Assembly (NCBI GenBank): GCA_041671565.1
Contig: JBAZBH010000002.1
Coordinates: forward strand, 32,000 to 95,999
Direction of reading: 5' to 3'
Source of the DNA: Patescibacteria group bacterium
Lineage (GTDB): Bacteria > Patescibacteriota > Patescibacteriia > JACRDY01
Length of the DNA stretch: 64,000 bases
Shown: positions 2,605-64,000 of the stretch, piece by piece
Position numbering within the stretch: position 1 is the first letter of the stretch
Layout: each line of letters opens with the position of its first letter
Position numbers and translations under genes: made by a program
Notes under the pieces: generated by a model
The model's input: the letters and a program-made list of their open reading frames with translations, nothing else
Told to the model about the DNA's origin: nothing
Database searches by the model: none

Positions 2605-2619
2605 TTTTTAAAGATATTC

Positions 2620-2793: not shown

Positions 2794-2817
2794 ATTAATT
2801 ATTATTTTCACCGCATC

Positions 2818-2846
2818 TTGACAAAAATTGCCCCTTACCCTATAAT
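2818..2846 (+). promoter_or_regulatory. consensus sigma70-type promoter (TTGACA-17-TATAAT)
   Basis: ttgaca 2818-2823, 17-nt spacer, tataat 2841-2846; lies ~160 nt upstream of nusA with a small hairpin+T-run (tcact..agtga ttttttt, ~2863-2890) in the leader. Confidence 0.6.
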
Positions 2847-3003
2847 GCTTCTAGAAAGTCACTATCTGATAAAGAGAGTGATTTTTTTGTTGCCAGGCTC
2901 GGATTCAATTTCGCGCTGATTTGCTGATTATTCGCTTAAATTTGCGTTTATTGTTTAATTACCCAATTTGCTTTATAATTAACTTATTATTAGATAAAAA
3001 TTT

Positions 3004-4380: not shown

Positions 4381-4512
4381 ATAAGTATTCAGGGAGCAGT
4401 ATTCAAGCATTAGTATTCAGGGAACAGTATTCAGTATTCAGGGAACTATATTCACGAACGGTGAATACGGACCCCCTGAATACTGAATACCGATCCCTGA
4501 ATACTTACTATA
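4381..4512. repeat. palindromic intergenic element, 'gtattcaggg' family
   Basis: tandem gtattcaggg(a)ac units mirrored by ccctgaatac units around ttcacgaacggtgaa; second copy at 8565-8700. Confidence 0.8.
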
Positions 4513-4513
4513 T

Positions 4514-5290: not shown

Positions 5291-5372
5291 TCCAGAGTCC
5301 GAAGTCCAGAGTGAGTTTTGAGCTGATTAGCTTTGAGCTTTCTCGGGACTTTGGACTCGGGACTCGGGACTT
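5291..5372. repeat. palindromic intergenic element, 'agtccagag' family
   Basis: tccagagtccgaagtccagagtga ... ctcgggactttggactcgggactcgggac; related copies at 17815-17850, 42660-42720, 43182-43230. Confidence 0.7.
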
Positions 5373-5377
5373 ATTTT

Positions 5378-5704
5378 ATGTTGATTCATGGTAAAAAACT
5401 TATTGGTTTGCCGGTTTATACCCAAGGCGGCCAGCATCTGGGCCATGTTGTTGATTTAGAAATTGATATTGATTCGCAAAGTATTGTTAACTATCAAGTG
5501 GGCAACTTTAATCCTATAAAAAATCTTTGGGGCGACAAGTTATTGGTTAATCGCCAGCAGGTGGTCAGCATCAGCGCCGAACGGCTGGTAGTGGAAGATA
5601 ATGTTAAAGAAGCGGCGGCCGCTATTTCTCTCAACGCTAAAGCCGAGGCGCCGGCCAGCGAAGCCATGGCCACTTCAACTCTTAACGCTGTCGAAAAAAA
5701 TTAA
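5378..5704 (+). CDS. PRC-barrel-like small protein
   Basis: GKKLIGLPVYTQGGQHLGHVVDLEIDIDSQSIVNY resembles PRC-barrel (RimM-C/YlmC-like); track ORF start 5333 lies inside the repeat, ATG 5378 preferred. Confidence 0.4.
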   Translation: MLIHGKKLIGLPVYTQGGQHLGHVVDLEIDIDSQSIVNYQVGNFNPIKNLWGDKLLVNRQQVVSISAERLVVEDNVKEAAAAISLNAKAEAPASEAMATSTLNAVEKN

Positions 5705-5734
5705 AATTTACCGCCGCGAAGAGAAGAAAAAAAT

Positions 5735-6142
5735 ATGAGTAAAGTATATATTTTTGGCCCAATCAATTTGTTCGGCGAGGATTATTTACCGGTATATAAA
5801 CATTTAAGAAGTTTGTGTCAAAAGTATTTTGATGAAGTTATTTGTACTTATCCTGATTTTTGGGATTCAAAAGAAAGTCCGCAAGATTTCTACGATCGAA
5901 CCTATAAGACAATTACAAAATGTGATTTATTTATAGGCGAGCTAAGTTCACCATCAATAGGAGTCGGGATGGAATTTCAAATGGCGCAAGAACATAATAT
6001 TCCTTGCATAATTTTATGTAAAAAAGGTGTTAAGCCGTCTATTATGGCTTTTGGCATACCGTGCGCCAAGCAGGTTATTTATTATGAAACATTGGATGAT
6101 TTATCAAAGCAGATAGAAGCGGCCGTGCAAGAGTTTAAGTAG
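5735..6142 (+). CDS. nucleoside 2-deoxyribosyltransferase-like (SLOG-fold) small protein
   Basis: CDLFIGELSSPSIGVGMEFQMAQEHNIPCIIL matches the Rossmann-like NDT motif (G-x-G-x-E-x-G-x-A); markedly AT-rich gene. Confidence 0.45.
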   Translation: MSKVYIFGPINLFGEDYLPVYKHLRSLCQKYFDEVICTYPDFWDSKESPQDFYDRTYKTITKCDLFIGELSSPSIGVGMEFQMAQEHNIPCIILCKKGVKPSIMAFGIPCAKQVIYYETLDDLSKQIEAAVQEFK

Positions 6143-8707: not shown

Positions 8708-9868
8708 ATGACTGCAGTTAAAAAGAATCTATTTATTTTATTTTCGCTCGGGTTTTTTCTGGCGCTCGCCGTCGCTTTGCCCGCCTATATCCACTCCACC
8801 TATCTCAGCCAGTTTGTGGGCGCGGACCAAACCGGCTGGTTTTTTATTGGCGCCATGGTTTTTGCGACTTTGGCGATAAATTTTTTCCCGCGGTATATCA
8901 GAAAATTCAGTAATTACAAAACCGCTTTGATGCTCTTGGCAGTCTACGGGCTGGACGCTTGGCTGTTGTCTTTTGCTTCTTCGGCTGTCATGGCCTTGAC
9001 GCTCTTTATTATTTTAGAAACTTCGGTCGTGCTTCTCGCTATCGTCATGGATGTTTTTGTGGAAAGGTTTTCGGCTGACGCGCTGACCGGGCGCATTCGG
9101 ACAGTCTACTACACCTTTATTAATTTTGGTTGGCTTATCTCGCCATTTATCGCCGGCCAATTGGTGAGCGGCGGCGGTTACGCTTGGGTTTATTGGGGCG
9201 CGGCCGCGATGGTCTTGCCGATTATTGCCATTTTACTCATTTGCCGCGGTCGGTATAAGGATCATCTGCCTTACCGCCATCGCTCAACCATTGAGGCGTT
9301 AAAAAAACTTTGGCCCCAGCCGAATTTGCGGCGCATTGTTAGCGTAGCTTTTCTTTTGGATTTTTTCTATGGCCTGGCAGTAATCTATATTCCGATTTAT
9401 TTGCATCAGTATCTAGGTTTTGACTGGATGACGATCGGTTGGATGTTCACGATTATGCTTTTACCGTTTGTGCTTTTGGAAATTCCGGCCGGCATCCTCG
9501 CCGATAAATATTGGGGCGAGAAAGAAATCCTAGCCAGCGGCTTCATAATCCTTTCCGGCGTCTTAATCGCGATGTTTCTCCTCGGTCCGGCGAGTCCTTT
9601 GGTTTGGGCGATTATTCTTTTCCTCAGCCGTTGTGGCGCCGCCCTGACCGAGGCGATGCGCGAGACTTACTTTTTCAAAAAAGTCAGCGTCCGCGATATG
9701 GATTATATTAATCTCTTTCGCAACGCCCAGCCATTTGGCTACATCGCCGCCGCGCTCCTCGGCATGCTAATCTTGCAGTTTTTCCCCTTTAACTATTTAT
9801 TCTTGTTTTTCGGGGTGATTTTGTTGTTGGGAGTTTATTTGGCGGTGAGATTGGAAGATACGAAATAG
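8708..9868 (+). CDS. MFS-type transporter
   Basis: ~12 predicted TM helices in 6+6 arrangement with a basic central loop. Confidence 0.55.
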   Translation: MTAVKKNLFILFSLGFFLALAVALPAYIHSTYLSQFVGADQTGWFFIGAMVFATLAINFFPRYIRKFSNYKTALMLLAVYGLDAWLLSFASSAVMALTLFIILETSVVLLAIVMDVFVERFSADALTGRIRTVYYTFINFGWLISPFIAGQLVSGGGYAWVYWGAAAMVLPIIAILLICRGRYKDHLPYRHRSTIEALKKLWPQPNLRRIVSVAFLLDFFYGLAVIYIPIYLHQYLGFDWMTIGWMFTIMLLPFVLLEIPAGILADKYWGEKEILASGFIILSGVLIAMFLLGPASPLVWAIILFLSRCGAALTEAMRETYFFKKVSVRDMDYINLFRNAQPFGYIAAALLGMLILQFFPFNYLFLFFGVILLLGVYLAVRLEDTK

Positions 9869-10130
9869 ATTTAAGATTTAGGATTTAAGATTTAAGAATG
9901 GTCGGTAAGCAGCGTCTAAACCTCTAAATACCATTTAAAGTTCAAAACCCTAAGTGCAAAGTTCCCCAGCATCCCAGCATACGCGGGACAAGTGCGCGGG
10001 GCAGGCAAATCAAGTTCAAAGATCAAAAGCTACCGGAGTTTTGACCTTTGAACTTGATTTGTCATTTGGGTTTTGGATTTTGTCATTTTAACTGTATCTA
10101 TTGGGTTAAAACATTTATTTCTAATTTTGT
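9869..10130. repeat. nested palindromic intergenic element (outer 'gatttaa' arms, inner 'ttcaaag' arms)
   Basis: atttaagatttaggatttaagatttaagaatg ... ttcaaag(a)tcaaaa ... tttgaacttgatttg; same architecture at 12425, 26925, 29685, 51160. Confidence 0.8.
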
Positions 10131-12424: not shown

Positions 12425-12700
12425 TTTGTATAGAAGAGATTTAAGATTTAGGATTTAAGATTTAAGAATGCCGGTATTTAGCGGTTTAAAGTTCAAAACC
12501 CTAAGTTCAAAGTTCAAATCAAGTTCAAAGATCAAAATTACTCAACCAGTTAAACCAAGAATAATATTTTGTCATTTGAACTTGATTTGTCATTTGGATT
12601 TTGAATTTTAAACTTCTAGTTGTGTTTATTGGTTTAAATGCCGGTTGCCGACCTTCTTAAATCCTACTTCTTAAATCTTAAATCTTATGTTATAATGTCC
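12425..12700. repeat. nested palindromic intergenic element (gatttaa outer / ttcaaag inner)
   Basis: agatttaagatttaggatttaagatttaagaatg ... aagttcaaagttcaaatcaagttcaaagatcaaaa ... tttgaacttgatttg ... cttcttaaatcttaaatc. Confidence 0.8.
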
Positions 12701-20575: not shown

Positions 20576-20665
20576 GCGCAGATACTCACAGATAGGCACA
20601 GATTTTCACGGATAAATTATCTGTGTAAATCTGTGCTGATCTGCGCCTATCTGTGTTCTTAAAAT
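20576..20665. repeat. 'cacagat' palindromic element (left flank of tmRNA)
   Basis: cagatactcacagataggcacagatttt ... atctgtgtaaatctgtgctgatctgcgcctatctgtg. Confidence 0.8.
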
Positions 20666-20667
20666 AA

Positions 20668-21068
20668 GGGGATGCCGGGTTTCGCTTGCAAGTTTACCCC
20701 ACTCTTTTGCCAGCCGAGCGCTCCCGAGCAACTCGTTAAACCGTTTGGGAAAGGACAAATGTCAACTTGTTCAACCAGGCTAAAAACGCGATCGCTTCGG
20801 CGTTCCGCGTTCCGGCCTTGGCTTCAGTCGTTGCCTAATTGCGACGGCTCATCGGTTCCCGATGTCTAATAGGGGAAAACCGGTGTTATAATTTAGACTC
20901 GGTTTAGGCGGCCGTTTGACTGCCTAATCCTAACTTGACTCAAACTCGGCTCACGGCGGATTTTGCCTGTTTCCTACCGCCGCGGCTTAAAAAACAACAA
21001 AACCGGCTAAGCTAGTAGAGTAAAGAGCGCGGTCTTGTAAGACGCGGGTTCAACTCCCGCCATCTCCA
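20668..21068 (+). ncRNA. ssrA: tmRNA (ssrA)
   Basis: begins GGGGATG and ends with tRNA-like T-arm/acceptor GGTTCAACTCCCGCCATCTCCA (acceptor pairs with the 5' end; CCA not encoded); directly downstream of smpB; a spurious 65-aa ORF overlies it. Confidence 0.8.
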
Positions 21069-21185
21069 TTTTAAAACACAGATTTACACAGATACTCACA
21101 GATAGGCACAGATTTACACAGATAATTTATCCGTGGAAATCTGTGCTGATCTGTGTAAATCTGTGCTTTAATCTGTGTCCTAATT
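21069..21185. repeat. 'cacagat' palindromic element (right flank of tmRNA)
   Basis: cacagatttacacagatactcacagataggcacagatttacacagat ... atctgtgctgatctgtgtaaatctgtgc. Confidence 0.8.
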
Positions 21186-29684: not shown

Positions 29685-29945
29685 GGATTTAAGATTTAAG
29701 ATTTAGGATTTAAGATTTAAGAATGGTGGTAATCAGCGTCTAAACCTCTAAATACCATTTTAAGTTCAAAACCCTAAGTTCAAAGTTCAAATCAAGTTCA
29801 AAGGCCAAAACTCCAATAGTCTTTTGATTTTTGAACTTGATTTGAACTTTGCACTTTGAACTTTGGATTTTTAATCAAATTGTATTGTAGGATGTTAATT
29901 TACCGACCATTCTTAAATCCTAAATCTTAAATCCTAAATCTCATT
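29685..29945. repeat. nested palindromic intergenic element (gatttaa outer / ttcaaag inner), most complete copy
   Basis: gatttaagatttaagatttaggatttaagatttaagaatg ... ttcaaagttcaaatcaagttcaaagg ... ctttgaacttgatttgaactttg ... cattcttaaatcctaaatcttaaatcctaaatc. Confidence 0.85.
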
Positions 29946-31323: not shown

Positions 31324-33291
31324 ATGAAATGGCAAAACTGGTTCACTGCGTTCTTCATGATGGCGGCAGTTATACTGTTCGCCGGTTGCACTCCCGACAC
31401 GAATGATGACGGCACGGCTTCGGCCGACGCTTCGGCGACCGCTGATGACGATGCCGCCACGGACGACGACACCGCCGCGGATGATGATGCGGTGGATGAC
31501 GATGATGTTGATGATGATGTTGATGACGACGCCGATGACGACACCGCTCCGGTGTTGTGCGACGACGGCCTGTTCTGCAACGGCGTGGATACGGTTAACT
31601 CGGTGACGCAATTGTGCGTCCACACCGGCGATCCGTGCGTGGTTCAAGGTCTGGTCTGCAATGAAGCGACGAAGTCCTGCGACCCCGCCGCTACGACCAC
31701 GACCACGACGCCGCCAGCGACCACCACGACCACGGTAGCGCCGACGACAACGACGACCGTGGCTCCGACCACCACCACGACGATGGCGCCGACAACGACG
31801 ACCACGACGGTGGTGACGACGACCAGTACGACCACGACGACCGTGGGTACGCTGGTTTCCTGTTATGAAGACGCGGACGGCGACGGCTACGGTAACTGGA
31901 ATACAACGCCGGTTCAGTTCGTTGATGTCTGCCCGTTTGGCTACGCGTCGAACGGTACGGACTGCGACGAGACCGATGGGACAATTTATCCCGGTGCGCC
32001 GGAACAGCGTTATGGCATTGACAGCGACTGTGATGATGAACCGGCCGACTGCATTGACATGGTCGTAGTCAACGGTTTCTATTGCGTTGATTATGATCCG
32101 GAAACGGATATGCTGATGCTCTACGGCCCGCCGGACCAACTTGAATCCTGGAAATACCTCAACCATTTTGAAGAAAATGGGGTGACTTATTTCGATTATG
32201 TGGATGTGCCGTTCGAGGCATATTTCATGTGGTCTTTTACGGGTTGGGGCAACCGGTTCAATTTCAGCCAAATCGTCGGCGACGGCTGGTTCTATCTGGA
32301 TAACTCCCAGCCGGAGCTGGACGGGACGGAAGAAGACGCAGACGGCGTGGTCTTGAACCACGATCTCTTGGACTACGCCAACTGCGACCTGCCGACGGGT
32401 TGCGCGTTGGAAGCTTGGGGCCGTAATCCCCGTTCTTTGGTCAATGTGATGTCCGGCAGTTGGGATGATTATTGCATCGCGTTGACCATGAGCCTAGAAA
32501 ACCAAGGCGAATGGTTGGACGATGGCAATGGCAACGCCTTGGACTGGCTGGTGGCTTTGGACGAGTGTACGGCCGGCGCCGACAATACTGGCGTTGACAG
32601 CCAAGGAAGGCCGTTTTACTGGGTGAACACCGAGGATGTTCCTTGGATTCACTCCCAACAGTGCAGCCTATTAACGGTTCCGTCGGTTTTGAAGGCTTGC
32701 CTGGAAACGAAGGCGGAATTCGTCTTCTATATTCCTCCCGGCACGACCACGACGACGAGCACCACGACCACCACGAGCACCAGCACGACGACAGTGGCGC
32801 CCGGCACCACGACGACTGTGGCTCCGACGACCACGACGACGGTGGTGACCACGACTGTGGCTCCGACGACCACGACGACGGTGCCGGTGCTAAAGGGACT
32901 ATTAACCAACAACACCACGACCGATCAATTGGAGATTGATTGGCTGATCAGCGGTGGATTTGTTCTCGGCTTCCTGGAGCCATGGCCGAATACGGCGGAG
33001 ACACCGGTGGCGCTGGCAGGCATTGACCAAGTTTGCGTCGCGAGGAAGAATGGCTCGTGGCTGCAGACTTGCGTCGATTTTGATTCGGCCGGCAATGAAT
33101 TGATTTTTCCGTCGGCCGACGGAACCGTTACGACGGATTTCTGGCTGTGGATCAGTGACATCTTCGGTCAGGAGTATTGGCTTTACATTGACACTGTAAC
33201 GACGCCGTACGAGGCGCTGCGCTTTAACCTGGATGGTTTGGCAGCAGCAGCCGGCAGCGGCGACAAATGGTTACGACGAACCGCGCCGTAA
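31324..33291 (+). CDS. surface lipoprotein with poly-Asp tract, 8-Cys module and Thr/Pro-rich linkers
   Basis: lipobox LFAGC; D-rich run (DDDAATDDDTAADDDAVDDDDVDDDVDDDADDD); CDDGLFCNG...C..C..C module; (T)n-VAPTTTTT linkers between folded domains. Confidence 0.6.
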   Translation: MKWQNWFTAFFMMAAVILFAGCTPDTNDDGTASADASATADDDAATDDDTAADDDAVDDDDVDDDVDDDADDDTAPVLCDDGLFCNGVDTVNSVTQLCVHTGDPCVVQGLVCNEATKSCDPAATTTTTTPPATTTTTVAPTTTTTVAPTTTTTMAPTTTTTTVVTTTSTTTTTVGTLVSCYEDADGDGYGNWNTTPVQFVDVCPFGYASNGTDCDETDGTIYPGAPEQRYGIDSDCDDEPADCIDMVVVNGFYCVDYDPETDMLMLYGPPDQLESWKYLNHFEENGVTYFDYVDVPFEAYFMWSFTGWGNRFNFSQIVGDGWFYLDNSQPELDGTEEDADGVVLNHDLLDYANCDLPTGCALEAWGRNPRSLVNVMSGSWDDYCIALTMSLENQGEWLDDGNGNALDWLVALDECTAGADNTGVDSQGRPFYWVNTEDVPWIHSQQCSLLTVPSVLKACLETKAEFVFYIPPGTTTTTSTTTTTSTSTTTVAPGTTTTVAPTTTTTVVTTTVAPTTTTTVPVLKGLLTNNTTTDQLEIDWLISGGFVLGFLEPWPNTAETPVALAGIDQVCVARKNGSWLQTCVDFDSAGNELIFPSADGTVTTDFWLWISDIFGQEYWLYIDTVTTPYEALRFNLDGLAAAAGSGDKWLRRTAP

Positions 33292-35266: not shown

Positions 35267-36484
35267 ATGAAGATCCTCCAGGTTCACAAGTTCTACTATC
35301 CTCACCGCGGGGCGGAGAGTTATTTTTTTAATCTAATTGAGTTACTAGAGAAACACGGGCACGAAGTGGCGCCTTTTGCTATGGCTGACGGTAAAAACCG
35401 CCCCAGCCCGTACGCGGACTATTTTACCGGGAAGCTTGATGTTAGCCGGCCGGATTATTCGCTCCGATCAATCAAGAAAATCGGCAAGATTATTTATAAC
35501 CGGCAGGCCAAGGCCGACGCCAGCCGGTTGGTTCAGAAATTTCGGCCGGATATTGTCCATGTTCATAATATCTATCATCAACTGTCGCCAGCGGTTTTAG
35601 AAGCGTTTAAGGAAGCCGGCTTGCCAGTGGTGATGACCGTGCATGACTTCAACCTGATTTGCCCCAATTATTTACTCTATACCCACGGTCGAATTTGCGA
35701 GCGATGCCAGGGCGGCCGGTTTTACAATTGTTTACTCCATCGTTGCATTAAAGATTCGTTTGGCGCTTCGGCCGTTGGCGCGGCGGCGGCTTATTTTAAT
35801 CGTCTCGCGCGGATTTATGAGAAAAATGTTGATCTCTATATCGCTCCCAGCCAGTTTTTGAAAAATAAACTGGTGGAGTTTGGTTTTCCGCCAGAGAAAG
35901 TGGTTGTCTTGCCGCATTTTGTCCCGGCGGCCAAAACTCCGGCTAAAGGCGCGGGCAAATATATTTTGTATGCCGGCGCGCTCCGCGGCAATAAAGGCGT
36001 TAAAGAATTGATCCGGGCGTTCCGTGAAGTTGAGTTTGATGCAGATTTGCAGATTGCCGGCGACGGGCCGGAGCGGGTTAACTTAGAAAAACTGGTTCAA
36101 AAATTGGGTTTGACCGAACGAGTTAAGTTCCTCGGCCAGTTAGCTCGCCCGGAGCTAACCGCCGTGATTCGACACTCGCGCCTAGTCGTAGTGCCGTCGC
36201 TTTATCACGAAGTTTTTGGCTTGGCGGCATTGGAAGCGTTGGCCGAGGGCAAGCCGGTACTCGCCTCGTCGCTTGGCGCGCTCCCCGAAGTGGTGACCGG
36301 CGAAGTCGGCCAGATCTTTAACCCGGCGGAAAAAGGCTCACTCGGCCGCAGTTTAAACTGGCTTCTTAGTCAACCGAATCTCGGCGCGATGGGGGAGAAA
36401 GGGTGGGAGGCGGTTAAAGAGAGGTATAGTTCGGCTGAGCATTATCAGAGGTTGTTGGAAATCTATAAGAGATTTAAGATTTAG
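35267..36484 (+). CDS. GT4-family glycosyltransferase
   Basis: GT-B fold; EVFGLAALEALAEGKPVLASSLGALPEVV (E-x7-E motif). Confidence 0.85.
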   Translation: MKILQVHKFYYPHRGAESYFFNLIELLEKHGHEVAPFAMADGKNRPSPYADYFTGKLDVSRPDYSLRSIKKIGKIIYNRQAKADASRLVQKFRPDIVHVHNIYHQLSPAVLEAFKEAGLPVVMTVHDFNLICPNYLLYTHGRICERCQGGRFYNCLLHRCIKDSFGASAVGAAAAYFNRLARIYEKNVDLYIAPSQFLKNKLVEFGFPPEKVVVLPHFVPAAKTPAKGAGKYILYAGALRGNKGVKELIRAFREVEFDADLQIAGDGPERVNLEKLVQKLGLTERVKFLGQLARPELTAVIRHSRLVVVPSLYHEVFGLAALEALAEGKPVLASSLGALPEVVTGEVGQIFNPAEKGSLGRSLNWLLSQPNLGAMGEKGWEAVKERYSSAEHYQRLLEIYKRFKI

Positions 36485-36720
36485 GATTTAAGATTTAAGA
36501 ATGTCGGTATCCGGTGTTTAAACCGATAACCGAGGTTAAAATGTCCAATATCCAAATCCCAATGTCCAATCAATGCCCAATGACCAAAGGTGGTAATCCC
36601 GAAGCGACCCCGTTGTGGCTTGGACATTGGTCATTGGGTCCGCCGAATCGGCGGATGGACATTGGAGCTTGGGCATTGGTCATTTATTCTTAAATCTTAA
36701 ATCCTAAATCTTTTTCTTGA
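36480..36720. repeat. nested palindromic element (gatttaa outer / aatgtccaat inner)
   Basis: gatttaagatttaggatttaagatttaagaatg ... aatgtccaatatccaaatcccaatgtccaatcaatgcccaatgaccaaagg ... ttggacattggtcattgggtccgccgaatcggcggatggacattgg ... ttcttaaatcttaaatcctaaatc. Confidence 0.85.
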
Positions 36721-40794: not shown

Positions 40795-40930
40795 AGGGAG
40801 ATTTAAGATTTAGGATTTAAGATTTAAGAATGGTCGGTAGCCAGCGTTTAGACTAAAAACCATAGGTTTAAGGAAACTCAATGCGGAGTTTATTCTTAAA
40901 TCTTAAATCTTAATTCTTAAATCTTTTTCT
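40795..40930. repeat. 'gatttaa' outer-arm palindrome with a distinct short core
   Basis: gatttaagatttaggatttaagatttaagaatg ... tattcttaaatcttaaatcttaattcttaaatc. Confidence 0.8.
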
Positions 40931-41252: not shown

Positions 41253-42596
41253 ATGAAACGCAGTTTGTTCCTTTTTTGTCTCATCATCACCGTGATGATG
41301 GGCGTTGTCGCTTGCAATAGCAGTGATGACGATGACAACGGAGCCACCGCCGACGACACCAATGACGGCGGCGACGACATCGATGACGACGCGATTGATG
41401 ATGATGGCAGTGACGACACCGGCGACGACGACACGGTCGCAGAAACGATGAATCTGAAAATGTCGGTGCCTCTTACCGAGTACACCGCCGCCGCCCAGTA
41501 TGGGCGATTCAGTGAAGTGTGGGAAGATGGTACGCCGGGCGATTTTTATGCCGAAAGTCCGGTGAATTATAGCGCCGACTCCGGCCAGATTTTTGCCGCG
41601 GCTGACGCGCCGGTTACTGTGGTGCGGATTACCGTCGACATTATCAAGGCCGACGGCACGCCGGTTGGTCCTGGCATTACGCCGACGCCGACATTCACGC
41701 GGAACGGGAGCCCGTTGTACCCTTCGGGGTACTATACGGATCCGAACGAAAATCCGGATACTGGCACCAGCGGCTGGATTCTCTATCCCGCCGGTACCGG
41801 CACGACCACGACGACCACGCAGGCACCCACTACCACAACGACTCAGGCGCCGACCACGACGACCACGGTGGCACCGACTACCACGACCACCGAGTTGCCG
41901 ACCACTACGAGCACGGTGGCGCCTACTACGACGACTGTGGCTCCGACGACGACCACCACCTCTGAGCCGCCGACCACGACGAGCACGGTGGTCACCACCA
42001 CGACGGGGATGACCACGACGACGATTCCGCCGACGGTGACGGAGATTTTCGACGGGGTTACCTCGGTGGAGATCAGTAATCTGCAGGTTGTCAACGGCAA
42101 TTTGCAGAATTTTTCCCATGTGGCGGCGAATGGCAGTTCGCTGGGCACGCCTATCTCGGCGGCCAATGTGATTGCGATTCAGGTCGCGATCGACTATGTC
42201 GATCCCGCGAATTTCCCGGAACTGCTGGTGAGCGGCGTGACGGCGGCGGGTTCATATCCTGTCGTGACCTCAGCCATCGCCGGTCTGGAATACACCATTC
42301 GCGTCCGGCTGGCCGATGGCAGCTCGGGCTGGGCCTGGCTGGACGCCAGTTTTGCCGTTATTGGCGGGACGATTCAGCCGATTGGGCCGCCGATCAACGG
42401 GAATCGGGTCGTTCGCGATGCGTTCAGCATCACGGCCGGCCTTTGGAGCCGCGCGGCCGTGGAAGCCCTGAATGGCGGCACCGTGACCGGGCTACTTTTC
42501 CGGCAGTGCACGGAGTATGCCGACGGGACGAAGGAATGCGTTACTCGGCCGCTCAGTGTCGGCAGTGTCAATCTCGGCGGCGACGCCTATTATTGA
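41253..42596 (+). CDS. surface lipoprotein with poly-Asp tract and Thr-rich linkers (paralogous architecture to 31324..33291)
   Basis: lipobox VVAC; SSDDDDNGATADDTNDGGDDIDDDAIDDDGSDDTGDDD; QAPTTTTT/VAPTTTTT linker repeats; linker-coding DNA (accacgacgacc)n near-identical to that in 31324..33291. Confidence 0.6.
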   Translation: MKRSLFLFCLIITVMMGVVACNSSDDDDNGATADDTNDGGDDIDDDAIDDDGSDDTGDDDTVAETMNLKMSVPLTEYTAAAQYGRFSEVWEDGTPGDFYAESPVNYSADSGQIFAAADAPVTVVRITVDIIKADGTPVGPGITPTPTFTRNGSPLYPSGYYTDPNENPDTGTSGWILYPAGTGTTTTTTQAPTTTTTQAPTTTTTVAPTTTTTELPTTTSTVAPTTTTVAPTTTTTSEPPTTTSTVVTTTTGMTTTTIPPTVTEIFDGVTSVEISNLQVVNGNLQNFSHVAANGSSLGTPISAANVIAIQVAIDYVDPANFPELLVSGVTAAGSYPVVTSAIAGLEYTIRVRLADGSSGWAWLDASFAVIGGTIQPIGPPINGNRVVRDAFSITAGLWSRAAVEALNGGTVTGLLFRQCTEYADGTKECVTRPLSVGSVNLGGDAYY

Positions 42597-45473: not shown

Positions 45474-46037
45474 ATGCCTAATCTCTTAGCTCAGAAATTC
45501 TTGCTTTTGAAGCTAAAAACTAAGGATCCAGAGGCCTTCGGTCAGTTTTATGATATCTATGTAAAGAAAATTTACCGCTTCATTTACTTTAAGGTTTCCT
45601 CAAAGGAAGAAGCGGAAGATCTAACTGCTGAGGCATTCTTGAAAATTTGGGAGTACATTTTTGCCGGCAAGAAAGTTGATAACCTCAATGCCTTCACTTA
45701 TCAAGTGGCGCGCAATCTGGTGATTGATTTTTACCGGCAAAAAAGCCAGAAAACTATCGCGCTCGAGTCGGAAGAAATTCTTGCCGAGATTCCCGACCCG
45801 ACTGCGGGCGCGGAAAAAATCGCCGAGCTGTGGCTGGACCAGGAAGAGCTGGCAAAATACCTCAAACAACTGAAAGACGAATATCGCGAAATTATCATTT
45901 TGAAATATCTGGACGAGCTGAGCGTTTCGGAGATTGCCAAGGTTCTTGATAAAACCAACGGCAATGTCCGAGTGCTCGCGCACCGAGCGCTGACGACTCT
46001 AAAAAATCTAGCGGAAAAAAATCACCGCCATGAATAA
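45474..46037 (+). CDS. ECF-type RNA polymerase sigma factor (sigma-70 regions 2 and 4)
   Basis: region 2 (FYDIYVKKIYRFIYFKV...AEDLTAEAFLKIW; NLNAFTYQVARNLVIDFYR) and region 4 HTH (LDELSVSEIAKVLDKTNGNVRVLAHRALTTLK). Confidence 0.85.
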   Translation: MPNLLAQKFLLLKLKTKDPEAFGQFYDIYVKKIYRFIYFKVSSKEEAEDLTAEAFLKIWEYIFAGKKVDNLNAFTYQVARNLVIDFYRQKSQKTIALESEEILAEIPDPTAGAEKIAELWLDQEELAKYLKQLKDEYREIIILKYLDELSVSEIAKVLDKTNGNVRVLAHRALTTLKNLAEKNHRHE

Positions 46038-47139
46038 CCACGAGTTGTTAAAACAATTAAAATCTTTAGAAACCGGCCAGCCGGACATCGAATGGGTGTC
46101 GCGGAACCGGGAGATTTTGTTATCCCAAATCCGCTCCCAGCAAGCGAAGCCAGTTGAGCTGTTTTCCCGCGCCGGCGCCAACTTCAGCTGGCAGGCGGTG
46201 CAGGTGCTTTTCCCGGTTCGGCTCGCGGTCCGCGCCGTGACGGCCGTCGGTTTGGTTATCGTCTTTCTTTTGGGCAGTTCCGTCACTTCAGCCTGGGCGG
46301 ACCGCAGTCTGCCGGGCGATCTTCTCTACAATGTTAAAATCACCACCGAGAAAGTCCAGTCCGCCATTACCACTTCAGCGGAAGATAAAACCAAGCTGGA
46401 AATGGAGTTTGCCGGCAAGCGGCTCGATGAGATCAAACGGCTGAGCGCCGAACAGCCAACTAGCGGCCGGCAGAAAGAAATCAAAAACACCCTTGCCAGC
46501 TACAAAAAAAATCTCGAGCAAGTTAATAATAATTTAGCCCAATTGGCCGGCCAGGGCAACGCGGAAAAAACGGCTGAATTGGCAACGCTGGTTAACAGCC
46601 AAACCACCGGTTATTCAAAATCACTGGCCGAGAGCGAGCAGGCGATAAAATCCCAAAGCAATGACTTTGGCCAGCAGGTCAAAGAAGTTTTGGATTTGTC
46701 TTTGGCGACAACCGATCAGGCGCTGGAAATTATGGTTGAGAAACAACAGCTCGCCGGCGCGGCGCTTTCACCGGAGGCGATCAAGCAGATTATTGGCGAA
46801 CGGATCAATAAAGCCAAAGAAAAATTAACTGCTTTAAAGCAAGAAGCGAATAATCAAGAAAACGCTTTATCAGTTATTAGCGCCAAGGCCCAGCGGCAGG
46901 CGGCTGCCACCCGTTTAGCCACCGCGCGGGAAGAATTAGCTTTAAGCGGTCAAAGTTTGGAATCAGCCCAGGCGGCTTTGGCGGGCAATGATTTAACTTC
47001 CGTTTTAAATAAATTAAAAGAGGCGAGCCAGGCGTTACGGGACGCCGAGGCGGCTTTGACTGAGCCGGTTTTGCCGGCGGTTGAGGTTGAAGGCGCGTCG
47101 GTGATAAAAGAAGTGGAGCCGGCGGAGACCTTGAAGTAG
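46030..47139 (+). CDS. putative anti-sigma factor: membrane-anchored, extracytoplasmic coiled-coil domain (DUF5667-like)
   Basis: start overlaps sigma stop (ATGAATAA coupling); single TM (AVTAVGLVIVFLLGSSVTSAWA); long Ala/Glu/Gln/Lys-rich helical ectodomain. Confidence 0.5.
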   Translation: MNNHELLKQLKSLETGQPDIEWVSRNREILLSQIRSQQAKPVELFSRAGANFSWQAVQVLFPVRLAVRAVTAVGLVIVFLLGSSVTSAWADRSLPGDLLYNVKITTEKVQSAITTSAEDKTKLEMEFAGKRLDEIKRLSAEQPTSGRQKEIKNTLASYKKNLEQVNNNLAQLAGQGNAEKTAELATLVNSQTTGYSKSLAESEQAIKSQSNDFGQQVKEVLDLSLATTDQALEIMVEKQQLAGAALSPEAIKQIIGERINKAKEKLTALKQEANNQENALSVISAKAQRQAAATRLATAREELALSGQSLESAQAALAGNDLTSVLNKLKEASQALRDAEAALTEPVLPAVEVEGASVIKEVEPAETLK

Positions 47140-60212: not shown

Positions 60213-61355
60213 ATGAAGATCGCCCAAGTAGTTTGCACTTTTCCTCCCTATAAAGGCGGTATGGGTAATACCGCTTATCATTATAGTTTGGAGCTCGCTA
60301 AACTCGGCCACGCGGTGACGGTTTTTACGCCGCATTTTAAGGATCGGCTGGTTAATTTCCAAAATTTTACCATCCGCGGCGTGGCGCCCTGGTTAAGCTA
60401 TGGTCTGGGCGCTTGGAGTCCGCGACTGGCCTGGGAACTCAGCGACTTTGATATTATCCAGTTGCACTATCCGTTTTTTGGCGGCGCTTTGCCGCTTTGG
60501 TGGCTCAAGAAAATCAAGCCCCGGAAAACCAAACTGGTTTTACTTTATCAGATGGATGTTTTGGGTCAGGGCATTTGGCGCCGGGTTTTTAACTGGCACG
60601 CCAAATATCTAATGCCGGGGATTATCCGGGCGGCCGACAAAATCATTATCACTTCGCGCGACTACGCCGCCAGTTCTCGTTTGGCGCCGTGGTTGAGTAT
60701 TTTTCCTGATAAGTTTGTGGAAATCCCGCTCGGCGTGGATACGGCGGTTTTTCAGCCCACGCCGCCTGACAGCGAATTAATAAAAAAATATCAGTTGAAG
60801 CCAGGCGAAAAAGTAATTTTATTTACGGCCGCCTTAGACACCGCGCATTATTTTAAGGGCCTGGATATTCTTCTCGCGGCAACGGCTACACTAAAAAATC
60901 CGGCGCGGTTGGTAGTGGTGGGTAAGGGCGACCTCAAAGATTTTTATGAGCGGCGAGCCGAAGAGTTGGGGCTAAAGGATCGAGTGACTTTTGCCGGTTA
61001 TTTGAGCGACCGGGATTTGGCGCGGCATTATAACCTGGCTGATGTTTTTGTCTTGCCGTCGGTTAACCGTTCCGAGGCTTTTGGCTTGGTTTATTTGGAA
61101 GCCGGCGCTTGCGCCAAGCCGGTGATTGGCTCGGACTTGCCCGGCGTGCGGACGGTGATCGATGATGGGCAGACCGGCTTCTTAGTCCAGCCGGGCGACG
61201 CCGCTGATTTAGTTAGTAAGCTGGAAAAGATTTTAGCCGATGGCGAGTTGGCAAAACGGCTGGGCCAGGCCGGGCGGGAAAAGGTGGTGGCGAAGTATAA
61301 TTGGGGGAATATTGCTAAGGAGATCGAGATAATATATAAACAAATTAAAAACTAA
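60213..61355 (+). CDS. GT4-family glycosyltransferase
   Basis: SEAFGLVYLEAGACAKPVIGSDLPGVRTVI (E-x7-E). Confidence 0.85.
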   Translation: MKIAQVVCTFPPYKGGMGNTAYHYSLELAKLGHAVTVFTPHFKDRLVNFQNFTIRGVAPWLSYGLGAWSPRLAWELSDFDIIQLHYPFFGGALPLWWLKKIKPRKTKLVLLYQMDVLGQGIWRRVFNWHAKYLMPGIIRAADKIIITSRDYAASSRLAPWLSIFPDKFVEIPLGVDTAVFQPTPPDSELIKKYQLKPGEKVILFTAALDTAHYFKGLDILLAATATLKNPARLVVVGKGDLKDFYERRAEELGLKDRVTFAGYLSDRDLARHYNLADVFVLPSVNRSEAFGLVYLEAGACAKPVIGSDLPGVRTVIDDGQTGFLVQPGDAADLVSKLEKILADGELAKRLGQAGREKVVAKYNWGNIAKEIEIIYKQIKN

Positions 61356-61460
61356 AAGATAAAAGAGAAAAACGAAAAACAAAGACTAAAAACTTAAAAC
61401 CTCCCCGTTTTTACTTTTGCGTTGTTGTCTTTCGTTTTTATCTTTAAGTTTTTATCTTAC
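61356..61460. repeat. AT-rich palindromic intergenic element
   Basis: aaaagataaaagagaaaaacgaaaaacaaagactaaaaacttaaaa-cctccccg-tttttacttttgcgttgttgtctttcgtttttatctttaagtttttatctt. Confidence 0.8.
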
Positions 61461-61462
61461 TT

Positions 61463-63031
61463 ATGCCTAGCTGCAAAAACTGCCAAACCACCTTTACCAT
61501 CTACCCCGAGGACCAAAAGTTCTACGGCCGGATTGGCGTACCCGAGCCGACGCTGTGCCCCGATTGTCGGCAACAACGACGATGGGCTTATAAAAACGAT
61601 ATGACGCTTTATCAGCGGCCGTGCGACTTATGCGGCAAGAGTATGATTTCCATGTATGATCCGGCTTGCCCTGATAAATATAAGGTCTATTGCCAAGATT
61701 GCTGGTTTTCTGATAAATGGGGCGGGGAAAACTTCGCCCAAAAGTATGATTTTAGCCGGCCATTCTTTAGCCAGTTCAAAGATTTGCAGTTAAAAGTGCC
61801 GCGGCAGACGCTGATTAATAATAACGCCGTTAATTCCGAATATTGCAATTTTGCCGATTTTACCAAAAATTCCTATCTCATCACCATGTGCAATTATAAT
61901 GAAGATTGTTACTATGGCATTTGGTTGGTGGAGAACAAAGATTGCGTTGATACTGCTTATTGCCGCAAATGCGAATTTTGTTACGAGCTGATTGATGGCA
62001 TCAATTGCTATGAAGTTTTTCATAGCCAGTTATGCGGTGATTGCAGTCACAGCCAGTATCTATTTGATTGCCGCAATTGCCACGATTGCTTTGGCTGTGT
62101 CGGCCTGCGCAACCAAGACCACTGCCTATTTAATAAAAAATATCCGGAAGAGGAATATAAAAGTAAAATCAAAGGCTTGACCACCGAAGTGATTGAGCAG
62201 GAATTTAATAAATTAAAATTACAGCAGATTCGCCGCAATTTAGCCGGCCAACACAACCATAGCGCCACCGGTGATCATCTCTTTAACTGCGATAATGTCC
62301 GCCAGAGTTTTGATGTCCAGGAGGCCAAAGATTGCGCTTATTGCTATGACGGTTTGCGAACTAAAGACGGTTATGATATCGCCGGTTTTGACACCATGGA
62401 GCTGGGTTATGAATGCATCAGCGCCGGCTGGGGCAATGCTTACTTTTTTTCTTACTATTGCCGCACTTCGCACAATATCTGGTATAGTGACAGTTGCCAT
62501 AGTTGTTCGGATTGTTTTGGTTGCATCGGCTTGCGGCACAAGCAATATTGTATTTTGAATAAACAATACAGTGAGGCTGAATATAATAAATTAAAAGCGG
62601 AAATTATCAAACAAATGACGGCGGCCGGCGAGTTCGGCGAAAGTTACCCGATTGCTAATTCGCCGTTTGCTTATAATGAACCGTTGGTGTTTGATTATTA
62701 TCCCTTGAGCCGCGAGGCGGTATTACAGAAAGGTTGGCGCTGGCAAGAAGAGAAAGTTAAAAAAGTTAATCCGGAATTGCCGGTTTGCTCGGTTTGCGGC
62801 AAAAACTTCAAAATTATTGACCAGGAAAAAAAGTTTTACCAAAAAATGAATCTGTCGGATCCCAAAAAATGTTTCAAATGCCGCCATCAGGCGCGGCTTT
62901 TGCTCCGTAACCCCCGCCGGTTATACCAAAGAAAATGTGCCAAATGCGGCGCGGAGATAGAGACGACTTACGCGCCGGAACGGCCGGAGAAGGTTTACTG
63001 TGAGGAGTGCTATCGGAAGGAAATATATTAA
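61463..63031 (+). CDS. cysteine-rich protein (about 10% Cys): zinc-ribbon-like modules at both ends, internally duplicated CxxC-rich ~20-aa repeats
   Basis: N-terminus CKNC...FY.RIGVPEPTLCPDCRQQRR...LYQRPCDLCGK...VYCQDCW; C-terminus CSVCGK...FYQKM...CFKCRHQAR...LYQRKCAKCG...VYCEECY; central repeats ending CRNCHDCFGCVGLRNQDHCLFNKKY and CHSCSDCFGCIGLRHKQYCILNKQY; no signal peptide. Confidence 0.55.
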   Translation: MPSCKNCQTTFTIYPEDQKFYGRIGVPEPTLCPDCRQQRRWAYKNDMTLYQRPCDLCGKSMISMYDPACPDKYKVYCQDCWFSDKWGGENFAQKYDFSRPFFSQFKDLQLKVPRQTLINNNAVNSEYCNFADFTKNSYLITMCNYNEDCYYGIWLVENKDCVDTAYCRKCEFCYELIDGINCYEVFHSQLCGDCSHSQYLFDCRNCHDCFGCVGLRNQDHCLFNKKYPEEEYKSKIKGLTTEVIEQEFNKLKLQQIRRNLAGQHNHSATGDHLFNCDNVRQSFDVQEAKDCAYCYDGLRTKDGYDIAGFDTMELGYECISAGWGNAYFFSYYCRTSHNIWYSDSCHSCSDCFGCIGLRHKQYCILNKQYSEAEYNKLKAEIIKQMTAAGEFGESYPIANSPFAYNEPLVFDYYPLSREAVLQKGWRWQEEKVKKVNPELPVCSVCGKNFKIIDQEKKFYQKMNLSDPKKCFKCRHQARLLLRNPRRLYQRKCAKCGAEIETTYAPERPEKVYCEECYRKEIY

Positions 63032-63035
63032 CGGC

Positions 63036-63110
63036 ACGGATGGGCACAGATTAGCACAGATCAGCACAGATCTGTGACTATCTGTGCCGATCTGTGTTAA
63101 TCTGTGTTTT
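63036..63110. repeat. 'cacagat' palindromic element
   Basis: gcacagattagcacagatcagcacagatctgtgactatctgtgccgatctgtgttaatctgtg; same family flanks the tmRNA. Confidence 0.8.
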
Positions 63111-64000
63111 ATGCCTAGCTGTAAAAACTGTCAATCCAACTTTACTATCTACCCCGAGGACCGCGCGTTCTACGGCCGGATTGGCGTACCCGAACCAACA
63201 CTTTGCCCGGATTGCCGGCAGCAACGGCGGTTGGCGTGGCGTAATGTCAGCCATCTTTATCTACGACAGTGCGATTTTAGCGGTAAGGATATCATTTCTA
63301 ATTATTCGCCAGATCAGCCATATAAAGTTTTTGATCCCAAAGTTTGGTGGACTGATAAGTGGGACCCCTTGGCTGCCGGGCGGAACTATGATTTTTCTCA
63401 GACATTTTTTGACCAGTTTTATAAATTGCAGTTAGCAGTTCCGCGGCCAGCTTTATTAGATAAAAATTCCACTAACAGCGACTACACTAATCACGGCGGT
63501 TATAATAAGAACTGCTACATGTGTTTCAATGTCGGCCAATCAGAGGATTTGTATTATTGCACTAATTTTATTTTAGAAAGCAAAGATTGTGTTGATTGCT
63601 ATGATATGCGCAAATGCGAATTATTATATGAGTGTTTTGATGTTAGGAACTGCTATAATTCAAAATATTTATTTTATTGCCGAGATTGTTATGATTCGGC
63701 TCTACTCTATGATTGCCATGGTTGTCACGATTGTCTGATGTGTTGGAATTTACGCAACGCCCAGTATTGCATTGAAAATAAAGCATATTCTCAGGAAGAA
63801 TACCAGAATAAATTAAAAGACCTCTATCCTCAAACTTATTCGGCTTGGCAGCAAAAACGGCAACAATTATTAGAAAATATACAAAGCCGGGCAATTCATA
63901 AATACACGCGAATAGAAAAAAGCGATCACTCTACCGGCAACCAGATAGTTAATTGCCAAGATGTTAAGAATTCGTATTATGCCACCGAGTCCGTTGGCTG
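63111..64000 (+). CDS. second cysteine-rich paralog (5' part; runs off window end)
   Basis: MPSCKNCQSNFTIYPEDRAFYGRIGVPEPTLCPDCRQQRR is near-identical to the N-terminus of 61463..63031; open frame to position 64000; not in ORF track because no stop in window (track ORF 63094..63435 is an off-frame artefact). Confidence 0.5.
   Translation, partial: MPSCKNCQSNFTIYPEDRAFYGRIGVPEPTLCPDCRQQRRLAWRNVSHLYLRQCDFSGKDIISNYSPDQPYKVFDPKVWWTDKWDPLAAGRNYDFSQTFFDQFYKLQLAVPRPALLDKNSTNSDYTNHGGYNKNCYMCFNVGQSEDLYYCTNFILESKDCVDCYDMRKCELLYECFDVRNCYNSKYLFYCRDCYDSALLYDCHGCHDCLMCWNLRNAQYCIENKAYSQEEYQNKLKDLYPQTYSAWQQKRQQLLENIQSRAIHKYTRIEKSDHSTGNQIVNCQDVKNSYYATESVG

Follow-up and report, generated by a model that had tools for sequence, protein, structure and literature searches.

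At the end of the 64,000-nt window (the whole stretch of Patescibacteria DNA analysed here), two adjacent genes lie on the forward strand, as the preliminary description had proposed. Gene 1 (61463..63031, +; NCBI MFA6534065.1, 'zinc-ribbon domain containing protein', by ORF call and database identity) begins with ATG and encodes a 522-aa protein, while gene 2 (63111..64000, +; MFA6534064.1, WCT37_02715) is truncated by the window end, its full 528-aa protein being read from the overlapping contig L001. The pair is a dispersed copy situated among glycosyltransferase genes, and its members are tandem paralogues with an overall identity of 50%. Their N-termini had been called near-identical, which holds for the first 40 aa (90% identical) but not for the whole proteins; with an overall identity of just 50%, the term fits only the N-terminal finger and the ten C-terminal residues. 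Recent gene conversion was considered as an explanation of this N-terminal identity and rejected: third-codon-position identity is 0.67 there against 0.33-0.79 elsewhere and, being no higher than elsewhere, leaves purifying selection as the simpler account. The length of 522 aa given earlier is correct, whereas the cysteine content of roughly 10% was overestimated, with 42 Cys in 522 aa (8.0%) for gene 1 and 39 in 528 aa (7.4%) for gene 2. The gene 1 protein has its first CxxC at residue 4 and no signal peptide or hydrophobic segment (best Kyte-Doolittle 19-residue window 0.48), in agreement with the cytoplasmic location already suggested; both proteins are probably cytoplasmic.

Each gene is indeed preceded by a palindromic repeat. 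Upstream of gene 1 lies an A/T-rich imperfect palindrome (61346..61454; 48-nt arms, 77% complementary; RNA dG -28.2 kcal/mol, z -5.2), one of the tandem-unit palindromes filling intergenic regions of this genome, and between the genes lies a CACAGAT-N3 x4 palindrome (63035..63106; 36-nt arms; RNA dG -44.6 kcal/mol, z -7.6), the predicted hairpin of which stops 2 nt short of the gene 2 ATG. A general role of the paralogues as readers of the intergenic tandem-unit palindromes was discarded, since these occur at 1.23 per kb here but at a median of 0.12 per kb in family loci.

Both ends of the gene 1 protein carry a related module of about 80 aa, as first noticed (residues 1-81 and 439-520 are 37% identical, E 9e-22). 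The N-terminal double zinc-finger module (aa 1-85; 61463..61717, +) contains the putative sites N1 (C4/C7/C32/C35) and N2 (C54/C57/C77/C80), and its C-terminal counterpart (aa 439-522; 62777..63028, +) the sites C1 (C442/C445/C470/C473) and C2 (C492/C495/C513/C516, CxxC-x17-CxxC). That these modules are zinc fingers is supported by matches over curated Pfam cut-offs: gene 1 matches PF13451 (zf_Tbcl) at 35.8 bits (gathering cut-off 24) in two stretches, of which aa 4-40 scores best, and PF23477 (zf_Tbcl_2) at 28.1 bits over aa 485-520, barely above the cut-off of 27, and gene 2 matches PF13451 at 24.6 bits; at E<=1, the two models are matched by 30 and 37 of 46 homologues, respectively. The NCBIfam model TIGR04272 scores below its 36-bit cut-off in gene 1 (24.1 bits, E 2.2e-5), and its characteristic spacing is present, with exactly 17 residues between C492..C495 and C513..C516, compared with 19 between the CxxC motifs C54..C57 and C77..C80 at the N-terminus. 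In Pfam, zf_Tbcl and zf_Tbcl_2 are 'probable' treble-clef domains without an assigned function, and their models span only ~37-48 aa per end, leaving the ~350-aa centre outside any model. The earlier statement that the proteins fall into no recognised family is therefore true of the whole protein, which no characterised family claims, but not of its ends. LIM domains likewise consist of two consecutive treble-clef fingers, and weak similarity to CRP-family LIM domains is detectable (PDB 1IBI, E 9.5e-4; PDB LIM chains ~1e-3); however, the LIM model PF00412 is matched at 16.5 bits (E 0.01) against a gathering cut-off of 22.9, and the terminal modules differ from the usual LIM Cys/His ligand mix in their all-Cys ligands, their spacing and their bacterial origin.

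Among 255 homologues, Cys covariation marks all four terminal Cys4 sites, only two of which are near-universal. The Cys of N1 and C2 are 89-96% and 96-98% conserved, respectively; site N2 (r 0.98-0.99) is intact in 41% of the homologues and is lost from the gene 2 protein, and site C1 (C445/C473, r 0.99) is intact in 58%. Judged from sequence conservation, the obligatory zinc sites would be the outermost ones, N1 and C2. Near-invariant Arg-rich helices are found in both modules (R36/R40/R44 and R474/R478/R482/R490), and the net charge is +4 (family median) for the N-terminal module and +9.8 in the gene 1 protein, or +6 as the family median, for the C-terminal one. This charge segregation, with basic ends, is conserved across the family, and in 239 of the 255 members the protein ends exactly 6 aa past the last CxxC.

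Profile searches against Pfam and NCBIfam found no model for the central ~350 aa. A helical connector (aa 86-119; 61718..61819, +), with conserved W81..D84.W86, FF.Q and VPR and with AF2 helices at 88-91 and 101-111 (pLDDT >88), precedes the first half of a predicted beta-solenoid (aa 120-228; 61820..62146, +), in which all 15 Cys fall at positions = 2 mod 3 and the terminal cap reads CRNCHDCFGCVGLRNQDHCLFNKKY. A helical linker (aa 229-262; 62147..62248, +; AF2 helices 229-237 and 241-254), the most variable region of all (mean column entropy 2.83), joins it to the second half (aa 263-370; 62249..62572, +), with all 10 Cys at positions = 0 mod 3 and the terminal cap CHSCSDCFGCIGLRHKQYCILNKQY. 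The centre is internally duplicated, as had been claimed, but as two ~110-aa halves of 6/12-residue coils and not as ~20-aa repeats: residues 147-232 and 289-374 are 37% identical over 86 aa (E 2e-18), and the two block ends quoted earlier are found at residues 203-232 and 345-374. Of the folds that had been suggested for an AlphaFold check, the AF2 model (pLDDT 84.6, pTM 0.85) shows the beta-helix, with two-residue strands every 6 residues, at a pLDDT of only ~70 in the solenoid region. All 25 central Cys of the gene 1 protein keep a single mod-3 register per half; across the family their columns are 25-95% occupied, with Ser, Thr, Ala, Gly, Val or Leu as free substitutes, and their presence barely covaries (r <= 0.41). 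As modelled, the centre would be a rigid acidic beta-solenoid of two homologous halves, with a core ladder of Cys and small residues at each third position.

Foldseek searches of the PDB with the full model returned no significant match. Like the Tenebrio molitor antifreeze protein, the modelled gene 1 protein has a narrow solenoid whose Cys point inward at a short, regular spacing; however, sequence identity to the Tenebrio protein (PDB 1EZG; PF02420), spruce budworm AFP (1M8N) and ryegrass IBP (3ULT) is 5-10%, the family protein has two halves, helical inserts and zinc-finger caps, and nothing suggests ice binding. The PF02420 model (TCTxSxxCxxAx) matches neither window protein at E<=1 and is not among the 25 families matched by most homologues, and the gene 1 protein, with neither signal peptide nor hydrophobic segment, does not share the secretion of the Tenebrio type. 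In the cytoplasm of an anaerobe and with no secretion signal, disulfides are unlikely. Neither the hexapeptide repeat of left-handed beta-helix proteins (LpxA, GlmU, gamma-carbonic anhydrase) nor the pentapeptide repeat of DNA mimics (Qnr, MfpA) is matched in Pfam, and the gene 1 protein shows no match to the hexapeptide-repeat transferases; the hexapeptide pattern is aliphatic, whereas the inward residues here are Cys with period 3, and trimer or active-site features are absent.

The solenoid is separated from the C-terminal module by a conserved helix followed by an acidic, aromatic-rich motif (aa 371-438; 62573..62776, +), with the family consensus GEWGEFFP..SPFAYNET.A..YFPL. In the motif itself (aa 389-425) the mean column entropy is lower than in any other region (1.61), with E390, G392, F394/395, P396, S400, F402, Y404, N405 and E406 invariant or near-invariant, so that the best-conserved stretch of the family is not Cys-based; no Pfam model covers it in the window proteins or their homologues. 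The predicted anatomy is thus that of a basic module with two treble-clef Cys4 sites at each end and the motif between solenoid and C-terminal module. Because two terminal sites are dispensable, the central Cys are replaceable and the best-conserved stretch is non-Cys, the zinc looks structural and not stored, and on the same grounds the general multi-metal binding scaffold originally envisaged finds no support.

Genes 1 and 2 belong to a large and so far uncharacterised family of soluble, probably cytoplasmic proteins that is confined to Patescibacteria. A database search yields at least 6955 homologues of gene 1 with 40-55% identity across the full length, and the family clusters comprise 2492 representatives (50% identity) at E<=1e-30, with a uniform length of 497-601 aa. 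A genome scan with a model built from 10 sequences gave at least 595 confirmed family matches, and the 80 loci listed all belong to Patescibacteria or unclassified MAGs; in phage and viral collections the family is essentially absent, with only an edge fragment and a finger-only match. Full-length copies number 2 to 8 in 61 of 82 loci, almost all on the same strand, and at least nine lie on contigs of this MAG. These paralogues are old, the best within-array identity having a median of 44% against 55% to the locus of another species. In keeping with solubility, the gene 1 protein has no transmembrane segment and a 19-residue hydrophobicity window exceeds 1.6 in just 4 of 255 members. A phage origin or a defence system was rejected on the near-absence from phage and viral collections, a single weak PHROGs match of unknown function and the PADLOC-DB anti-phage models, none of which matches either window protein. 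Identity with the 'cysteine-rich proteins' of Peribacteria was likewise rejected, as those are extracellular, 580-3860 aa long (mean ~1,650) and annotated with pappalysin-type and Myxococcus Cys-repeat domains (PMC4736985). In the literature on PF13451/zf_Tbcl, DUF8128 and Patescibacteria solenoids or beta-helices, no description of the family was found.

Recurrent neighbourhoods comprise only three components, namely the family gene, a VirD4-like ATPase and a divergent TrmB-type regulator near the family arrays, with no T4SS channel or relaxase gene recurring. Seen from the ATPase, family genes are present in 43 of 60 loci with an ATPase at >=48% identity and in 0 of 20 loci with more distant homologues. 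Within the soluble VirD4/TraD-like subfamily, a family gene is directly adjacent to the ATPase in 34 of 53 loci, which overstates the number of independent events because metagenome loci are not phylogenetically independent, and it stands immediately upstream on the same strand in 27 of 44, with gaps of 8-200 nt. Of 81 loci approached from the family side, 15 have the ATPase and 23 the TrmB-type regulator within 6 kb; most family genes, including the window pair, are not next to the ATPase (66 of 81 loci), and ATPase and regulator are both absent from the 64-kb window and contig L001. The ATPase resembles the type IV coupling proteins VirD4/TraD/TrwB in matching the T4SS-DNA_transf, TrwB_AAD_bind, TraG-D_C and VirD4-like CD1115 models, with a weak additional match to CedD, but differs from them in its N-terminal DUF8128 domain, the absence of a membrane anchor or transmembrane segment and the absence of a linked relaxase or channel gene. 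Most of the 5713 Patescibacteria VirD4 homologues in a 2025 survey are not near virB4 (148 are), and may have been exapted (PMC12102498). For the ATPase itself, PADLOC shows nothing beyond weak matches to mad8 and HerA.

On the basis of this gene neighbourhood, we tentatively favour, at somewhat less than even confidence, a reading in which the family proteins are zinc-stabilised cytoplasmic clients or adaptors of the soluble DUF8128 VirD4/TraD-like ATPase. They would work with this transmembrane-less hexameric ATPase, in many genomes encoded right after a same-strand family array and often close to the divergent TrmB-type regulator. Coupling proteins recognise basic C-terminal elements of the conserved kind seen in the family proteins and, by analogy with such signals of their substrates, the invariant, basic, fixed-length C-terminal finger module may be the docking element, although no known family of coupling-protein substrates or accessory factors (TraM-TraD; XVIPCD-bearing effectors) resembles the solenoid protein. 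The solenoid surface and the conserved motif could then give each paralogue its own binding to protein or nucleic acid, with several anciently diverged paralogues per genome kept as a repertoire; a partner of fixed stoichiometry is hard to square with copy numbers that range from 1 to at least 8 per locus. A bolder and doubtful extension is that the family and the DUF8128 ATPase, under the TrmB-type regulator, form an undescribed Patescibacteria-specific cytoplasmic machine, in which an exapted conjugation-type motor would load, remodel or thread the zinc-capped solenoid repertoire, and in which the thiol-lined core might also hold a linear chain of metal ions, for which there is no structural precedent.

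The same linkage could be explained by stand-alone architectural proteins, unlikely but to be taken seriously, whose basic finger modules grip DNA or RNA while the rigid solenoid spaces them as a bridge or ruler; a common task in DNA handling would then account for their position beside the ATPase, as for relaxosome accessory proteins presenting DNA to TraD. The Arg-rich helices, the family-wide positive charge of the terminal modules, one JGI annotation as 'Zn ribbon nucleic-acid-binding protein' and the ATPase's matches to DNA-transfer families (T4SS-DNA_transf, TrwB_AAD_bind and, weakly, CedD) are compatible with this. However, no nucleic-acid-binding family is matched, Foldseek links the model to C2H2 finger-DNA complexes only without significance (E>3), what weak resemblance there is in sequence points to LIM domains, which mediate protein-protein contacts, and the intergenic tandem-unit palindromes are rare in most family-bearing genomes (median 0.12 versus 1.23 per kb). 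Export is still less probable: the ATPase would be a true coupling protein passing effectors to the Patescibacteria T4SS, which would deliver them into or onto a host bacterium, with the arrays as effector repertoire. The conserved basic ~80 aa with a fixed end resemble C-terminal T4SS signals, effector families typically occur in multi-copy arrays and a coupling-protein homologue is linked, but this ATPase lacks a membrane anchor, its surroundings show no recurrent T4SS channel gene, profile searches reveal no enzymatic or toxin domain in the family proteins, and a solenoid stabilised by zinc would not easily unfold for export. The paralogues are moreover old, of uniform length and constrained along their whole length, and not fast-evolving. 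T4SS are common across the Patescibacteria and matter for the epibiotic way of life, yet just 148 of 5713 VirD4 homologues lie near virB4 and that of S. epibionticum is non-essential for epibiotic growth (PMC12102498).

A metallothionein-like store or buffer, in which the Cys of the multi-zinc scaffold proposed in the preliminary description would sequester Zn or other metals, appears very improbable despite a Cys content of 8% and up to four terminal Cys4 sites. Metallothionein-like stores are small, contain 15-30% Cys in conserved clusters and have few or no aromatic residues, whereas the gene 1 protein has 522 aa, 8.0% Cys, many Tyr, Phe and Trp, and many poorly conserved Cys columns. The terminal sites N2 and C1, intact in 41% and 58% of homologues, respectively, are dispensable, the solenoid Cys swap with Ser, Ala, Gly or Val without covarying as sites, and conservation is strongest in non-Cys motifs. 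A related CxxC-x17-CxxC domain in small Methanosarcina proteins does bind Zn by ICP-MS (PMC12704099), and one homologue adjoins a ZIP metal-transporter gene, but no metal-homeostasis gene recurs in the neighbourhood. An extracellular, disulfide-bonded beta-helix, serving as adhesin or, like the antifreeze proteins at the head of the fold search, binding ice or surfaces, is scarcely credible; a precomputed PF02420 (insect antifreeze) match in one homologue, P0109, is not repeated in the gene 1 protein, which has no signal peptide or transmembrane segment, only 4 of 255 members exceed 1.6 in any 19-residue hydrophobicity window, and zinc fingers that bear Arg-rich helices belong inside the cell.

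The preliminary description had not noted how large the family is, that it is confined to Patescibacteria, that it forms tandem arrays or that it is linked to a VirD4-like ATPase and TrmB-type regulator. Patescibacteria genomes measure ~1 Mb, yet at least nine diverged copies of a ~1.6-kb gene are kept here and eight in a row elsewhere, which implies an important, still unnamed function. Since neither Pfam nor NCBIfam describes the central 350 aa, thousands of database entries stay 'hypothetical' or 'zinc-ribbon domain containing'. The linkage also supplies a concrete candidate partner for many 'orphan' Patescibacteria VirD4-like ATPases, the role of which was left open by the survey (PMC12102498), and a cytoplasmic solenoid with a cysteine-ladder core is an unusual structure worth solving.

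Beyond the gene pair, the CACAGAT element at 63036 belongs to the same family as those bracketing the tmRNA, as had been observed: the tmRNA (20668-21071) is flanked by CACAGAT palindromes at 20577-20655 and 21077-21165, these and 63035-63106 being the only three occurrences of the CACAGAT-N3 palindrome in the window. The CACAGAT-N3 pattern has 19 matches in the window against 0 expected from shuffles.

The tandem genes 1 and 2 are ordinary members of an existing, unnamed database family, and their terminal domains are already known as Pfam entries of unknown function. Gene 1 (61463..63031, + strand; NCBI name 'zinc-ribbon domain containing protein') is an ORF of 522 aa, and gene 2 (+ strand; 'hypothetical protein WCT37_02715') begins at 63111 and runs past the window end, its full length of 528 aa being completed from the overlapping metagenome contig L001. 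Cysteines number 42 in gene 1 (8.0%) and 39 in gene 2 (7.4%), so that the roughly 10% of the preliminary description was too high. The near-identical N-termini reported there do stand (90% identity over the first 40 aa, with 100% over the last 10), but the whole proteins are only 50% identical. Self-comparison of gene 1 bears out the internal duplications, both between the termini (residues 1-81 versus 439-520; 37% identity, E 9e-22) and within the centre (147-232 versus 289-374; 37% identity, E 2e-18). The profile searches proposed earlier assigned the ends alone: Pfam covers only these in the gene 1 protein, with zf_Tbcl at aa 4-40 (35.8 bits) plus a second stretch and zf_Tbcl_2 at aa 485-520 (28.1 bits), but the central ~350 aa matched no Pfam family in 46 homologues scanned one by one. 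Furthermore, the NCBIfam CxxC-x17-CxxC model scored under its cut-off, a PDB sequence search returned LIM-domain matches only, all weak, and a PADLOC scan gave no match. The sole experimental anchor found is the zinc binding, determined by ICP-MS, of small CxxC-x17-CxxC-domain proteins from Methanosarcina mazei (PMC12704099).

An architecture of zinc-finger ends enclosing a two-half solenoid is predicted with support. In an AlphaFold2 model of gene 1 built with a 46-sequence alignment (mean pLDDT 84.6, pTM 0.85), both ends form helix-containing zinc-finger modules, helical linkers separate the parts of the layout, and two-residue strands recur every six residues at approximately 120-228 and 256-368 (pLDDT ~70), in keeping with the beta-helix raised earlier as one possible outcome. 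The gene 1 sequence agrees with such a solenoid. Its central cysteines keep one mod-3 register per half, which is 2 mod 3 for all 15 in the first half and 0 mod 3 for all 10 in the second. Across a 255-sequence alignment this register is kept by nearly all columns with at least 25% Cys; the share of Cys in these solenoid columns is 25-95%, the remainder being Ser, Thr, Ala, Gly, Val or Leu, the cysteines barely covary (r <= 0.41), and a position next to them is Asp/Asn-rich. Judged from the alignment, the pattern is that of a putative inward-facing ladder. In the Tenebrio protein, every third residue of the 12-residue TCTxSxxCxxAx coil points inward, and the predicted family ladder is alike in placing an inward residue at every third position.

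Covariation and conservation of cysteines were also measured across the 255 sequences for the terminal modules, where cysteine presence covaries in blocks; from this, the modules are predicted to hold four Cys4 sites. Site N1 (Cys 4, 7, 32, 35; C7/C35 r 0.81) is 89-96% conserved, whereas N2 (Cys 54, 57, 77, 80; C57/C77/C80 r 0.98-0.99) retains C54 in 84% and C57/77/80 in 41-42% of members and is lost in gene 2. At the other end, C1 (Cys 442, 445, 470, 473; C445/C473 r 0.99) shows conservation of 97% for C442, 76% for C470 and 58% for C445/473, and C2 (Cys 492, 495, 513, 516) is near-invariant at 96-98%. The best-conserved part of the protein is non-cysteine: it begins at the cap that closes the second solenoid half and continues over a helix into a GEWGEFFP..SPFAYNET..YFPL motif, which the C2 finger follows. 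Median charges are basic for the N- and C-terminal modules (+4 and +6) and acidic for the solenoids and motif (-5, -4 and -6). In addition, the chain ends exactly six residues past the last CxxC in 239 of 255 members, mostly with Tyr.

The family is large and, as far as the searches support, restricted to Patescibacteria. A word-indexed search returned at least 6955 homologues that align along their whole length at 40-55% identity, and every named one is from Patescibacteria. When 1.84 billion representatives were searched exhaustively with a profile, 2492 clusters matched at E<=1e-30 and 6403 did so at E<=1e-3; among the 150 matches listed, almost all measure 497-601 aa and align from one end to the other. 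A scan of one genome per species confirmed at least 595 stretches, and the 80 loci kept and listed come from Patescibacteria or unclassified MAGs and cover Peregrinibacteria/Peribacteria, Gracilibacteria, Abawacabacteria, Nomurabacteria, Harrisonbacteria, Jorgensenbacteria, Staskawiczbacteria, Paceibacterota and Minisyncoccia. The family is essentially absent from the phage and viral collections searched. A PHROGs scan of the gene pair gave a single weak match to the repeat region, phrog_15341 (a phage family of unknown function, 276-position profile), which touches the solenoid halves at aa 274-378 of gene 1 and 134-230 of gene 2 (E ~2e-4), so that some phages may carry a related cysteine-ladder repeat.

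Two to eight full-length copies lie within ~14 kb in 61/82 loci, nearly all on one strand, and contigs from the window MAG's sample, whose paralogues bear WCT37 locus tags, carry at least 9 copies. Arrays in which 5 to 8 or more full-length genes share a strand occur at loci L003, L005, L014, L032, L039, L048, L056, L092 and L112, and may in truth be longer because they reach the ends of the DNA examined; at L112, six copies lie upstream of the VirD4-like ATPase gene and three more downstream. Sequence comparison shows the array paralogues to be old copies, since relatives in other species' loci are closer than locus mates: median best identity is 44% inside the own locus versus 55% to another species' locus, and 85% of family genes have their closer relative in another genome.

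Clustering of neighbouring ORFs across 81 family loci yielded two recurrent partners, a ~252-aa HTH regulator of TrmB type encoded on the opposite strand (23/81) and an ATPase of ~747 aa on the same strand, mostly directly adjacent (15/81). The recurring components are three only: regulator, array and ATPase. The ATPase matches Pfam T4SS-DNA_transf, TrwB_AAD_bind, DUF87 and TraG-D_C and NCBIfam VirD4-like CD1115, carries DUF8128 according to precomputed annotations, and has no transmembrane segment in its sequence. In the reverse direction, metagenome contigs were scanned with the ATPase alignment: among 60 loci at >=48% identity to the query, 43 held a family gene, directly adjacent in 34/53, versus none, adjacent or otherwise, among 20 loci below 48%. 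Of 44 testable loci, 27 have the family gene as the immediate upstream neighbour in the same orientation, 8-200 nt away. The linkage is specific to one subfamily of soluble VirD4-like ATPases. On a further MAG contig, L083, an apparently split version (2143-5838; a 482-aa DUF8128 protein, a 133-aa ORF and a 596-aa TrwB/DUF87 ATPase) precedes two family genes at a distance of ~2.4 kb. Neither ATPase nor TrmB-type regulator is present in the window or L001; there, the pair sits amid envelope-sugar genes, an epimerase, two GT2 and one GT4 lying upstream and a GT4 gene, then NrdR/NrdD/NrdG, downstream. In a 2025 survey, 2918 Patescibacteria genomes yielded 5713 VirD4 homologues, just 148 of them near virB4, and the authors suggested possible exaptation to other roles (PMC12102498).

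ECF-type sigma factors were also seen, adjoining a DUF5667 protein at 45474-47139 of the window, beside the family gene in locus L004 (9592-11125), and, with an unannotated 244-aa ORF, just upstream of the family gene encoding homologue P0038; these hint at sigma-factor control of some copies.

Taken together, we infer that the family comprises cytoplasmic, zinc-stabilised clients or adaptors of the VirD4-like ATPase, which would dock on it through the invariant basic C-terminal module and present the solenoid and conserved motif as a specificity surface. Competing readings are stand-alone nucleic-acid bridging proteins and exported T4SS effectors. A role as metal stores, suggested by the abundance of cysteine, is weakened because the terminal zinc sites are partly dispensable and the solenoid-core cysteines replaceable. 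An extracellular disulfide-bonded helix is likewise weakened by the absence of an export signal, no transmembrane or signal-like segment having been found, as the preliminary description had held for signal peptides.

The ingredients of the proposed client or adaptor system, namely treble-clef fingers, a beta-solenoid and a coupling-type ATPase, are of known kinds. Three features appear not to have been described in the literature searched: the solenoid centre with its cysteine ladder, old tandem arrays on this scale in genomes so small, and a conserved coupling of the family to a TrmB-type regulator and a soluble ATPase of conjugation type. The regulator/array/ATPase module has a modest chance of being a new kind of system.

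Strong palindromes precede both genes, as first described, and the CACAGAT element is indeed shared with the tmRNA flanks: the CACAGAT-N3 palindrome occurs in the window only between the two genes (63035-63106) and at 20577-20655 and 21077-21165, on either side of the tmRNA (20668-21071, + strand; Rfam 107.6 bits over the full model, no ARAGORN call). A predicted intergenic hairpin at 63042-63111 (dG -44.6 kcal/mol), followed by UUUUAU, ends 2 nt before the gene 2 ATG and thus leaves that gene with no Shine-Dalgarno region outside the paired bases; its possible roles are those of a terminator, a processing site or a means of coupling translation to unfolding. Most window intergenic regions carry palindromes of ~4 tandem 7-10-nt units followed by inverted copies (e.g., 1323-1467, 9867-9897, 12437-12687, 29686-29941, 36470-36712 and 40799-40925), the unit changing between regions and sometimes recurring (e.g., AGATTTA). 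The 64 kb of the window hold 79 merged arrays, a density of 1.23 per kb, compared with a median of 0.12 per kb across 82 loci of other Patescibacteria; a few Peribacteria loci (L030, L073, L021 and L041) are palindrome-rich as well. ORFs 31324-33291 and 41253-42596 contain long, imperfect repeats of the ACGACC / GGTGGCGCC type at 31480-31841, 32742-32876 and 41799-42024, their periods being 24, 48 and 72 nt, and probably encode low-complexity repeat proteins.
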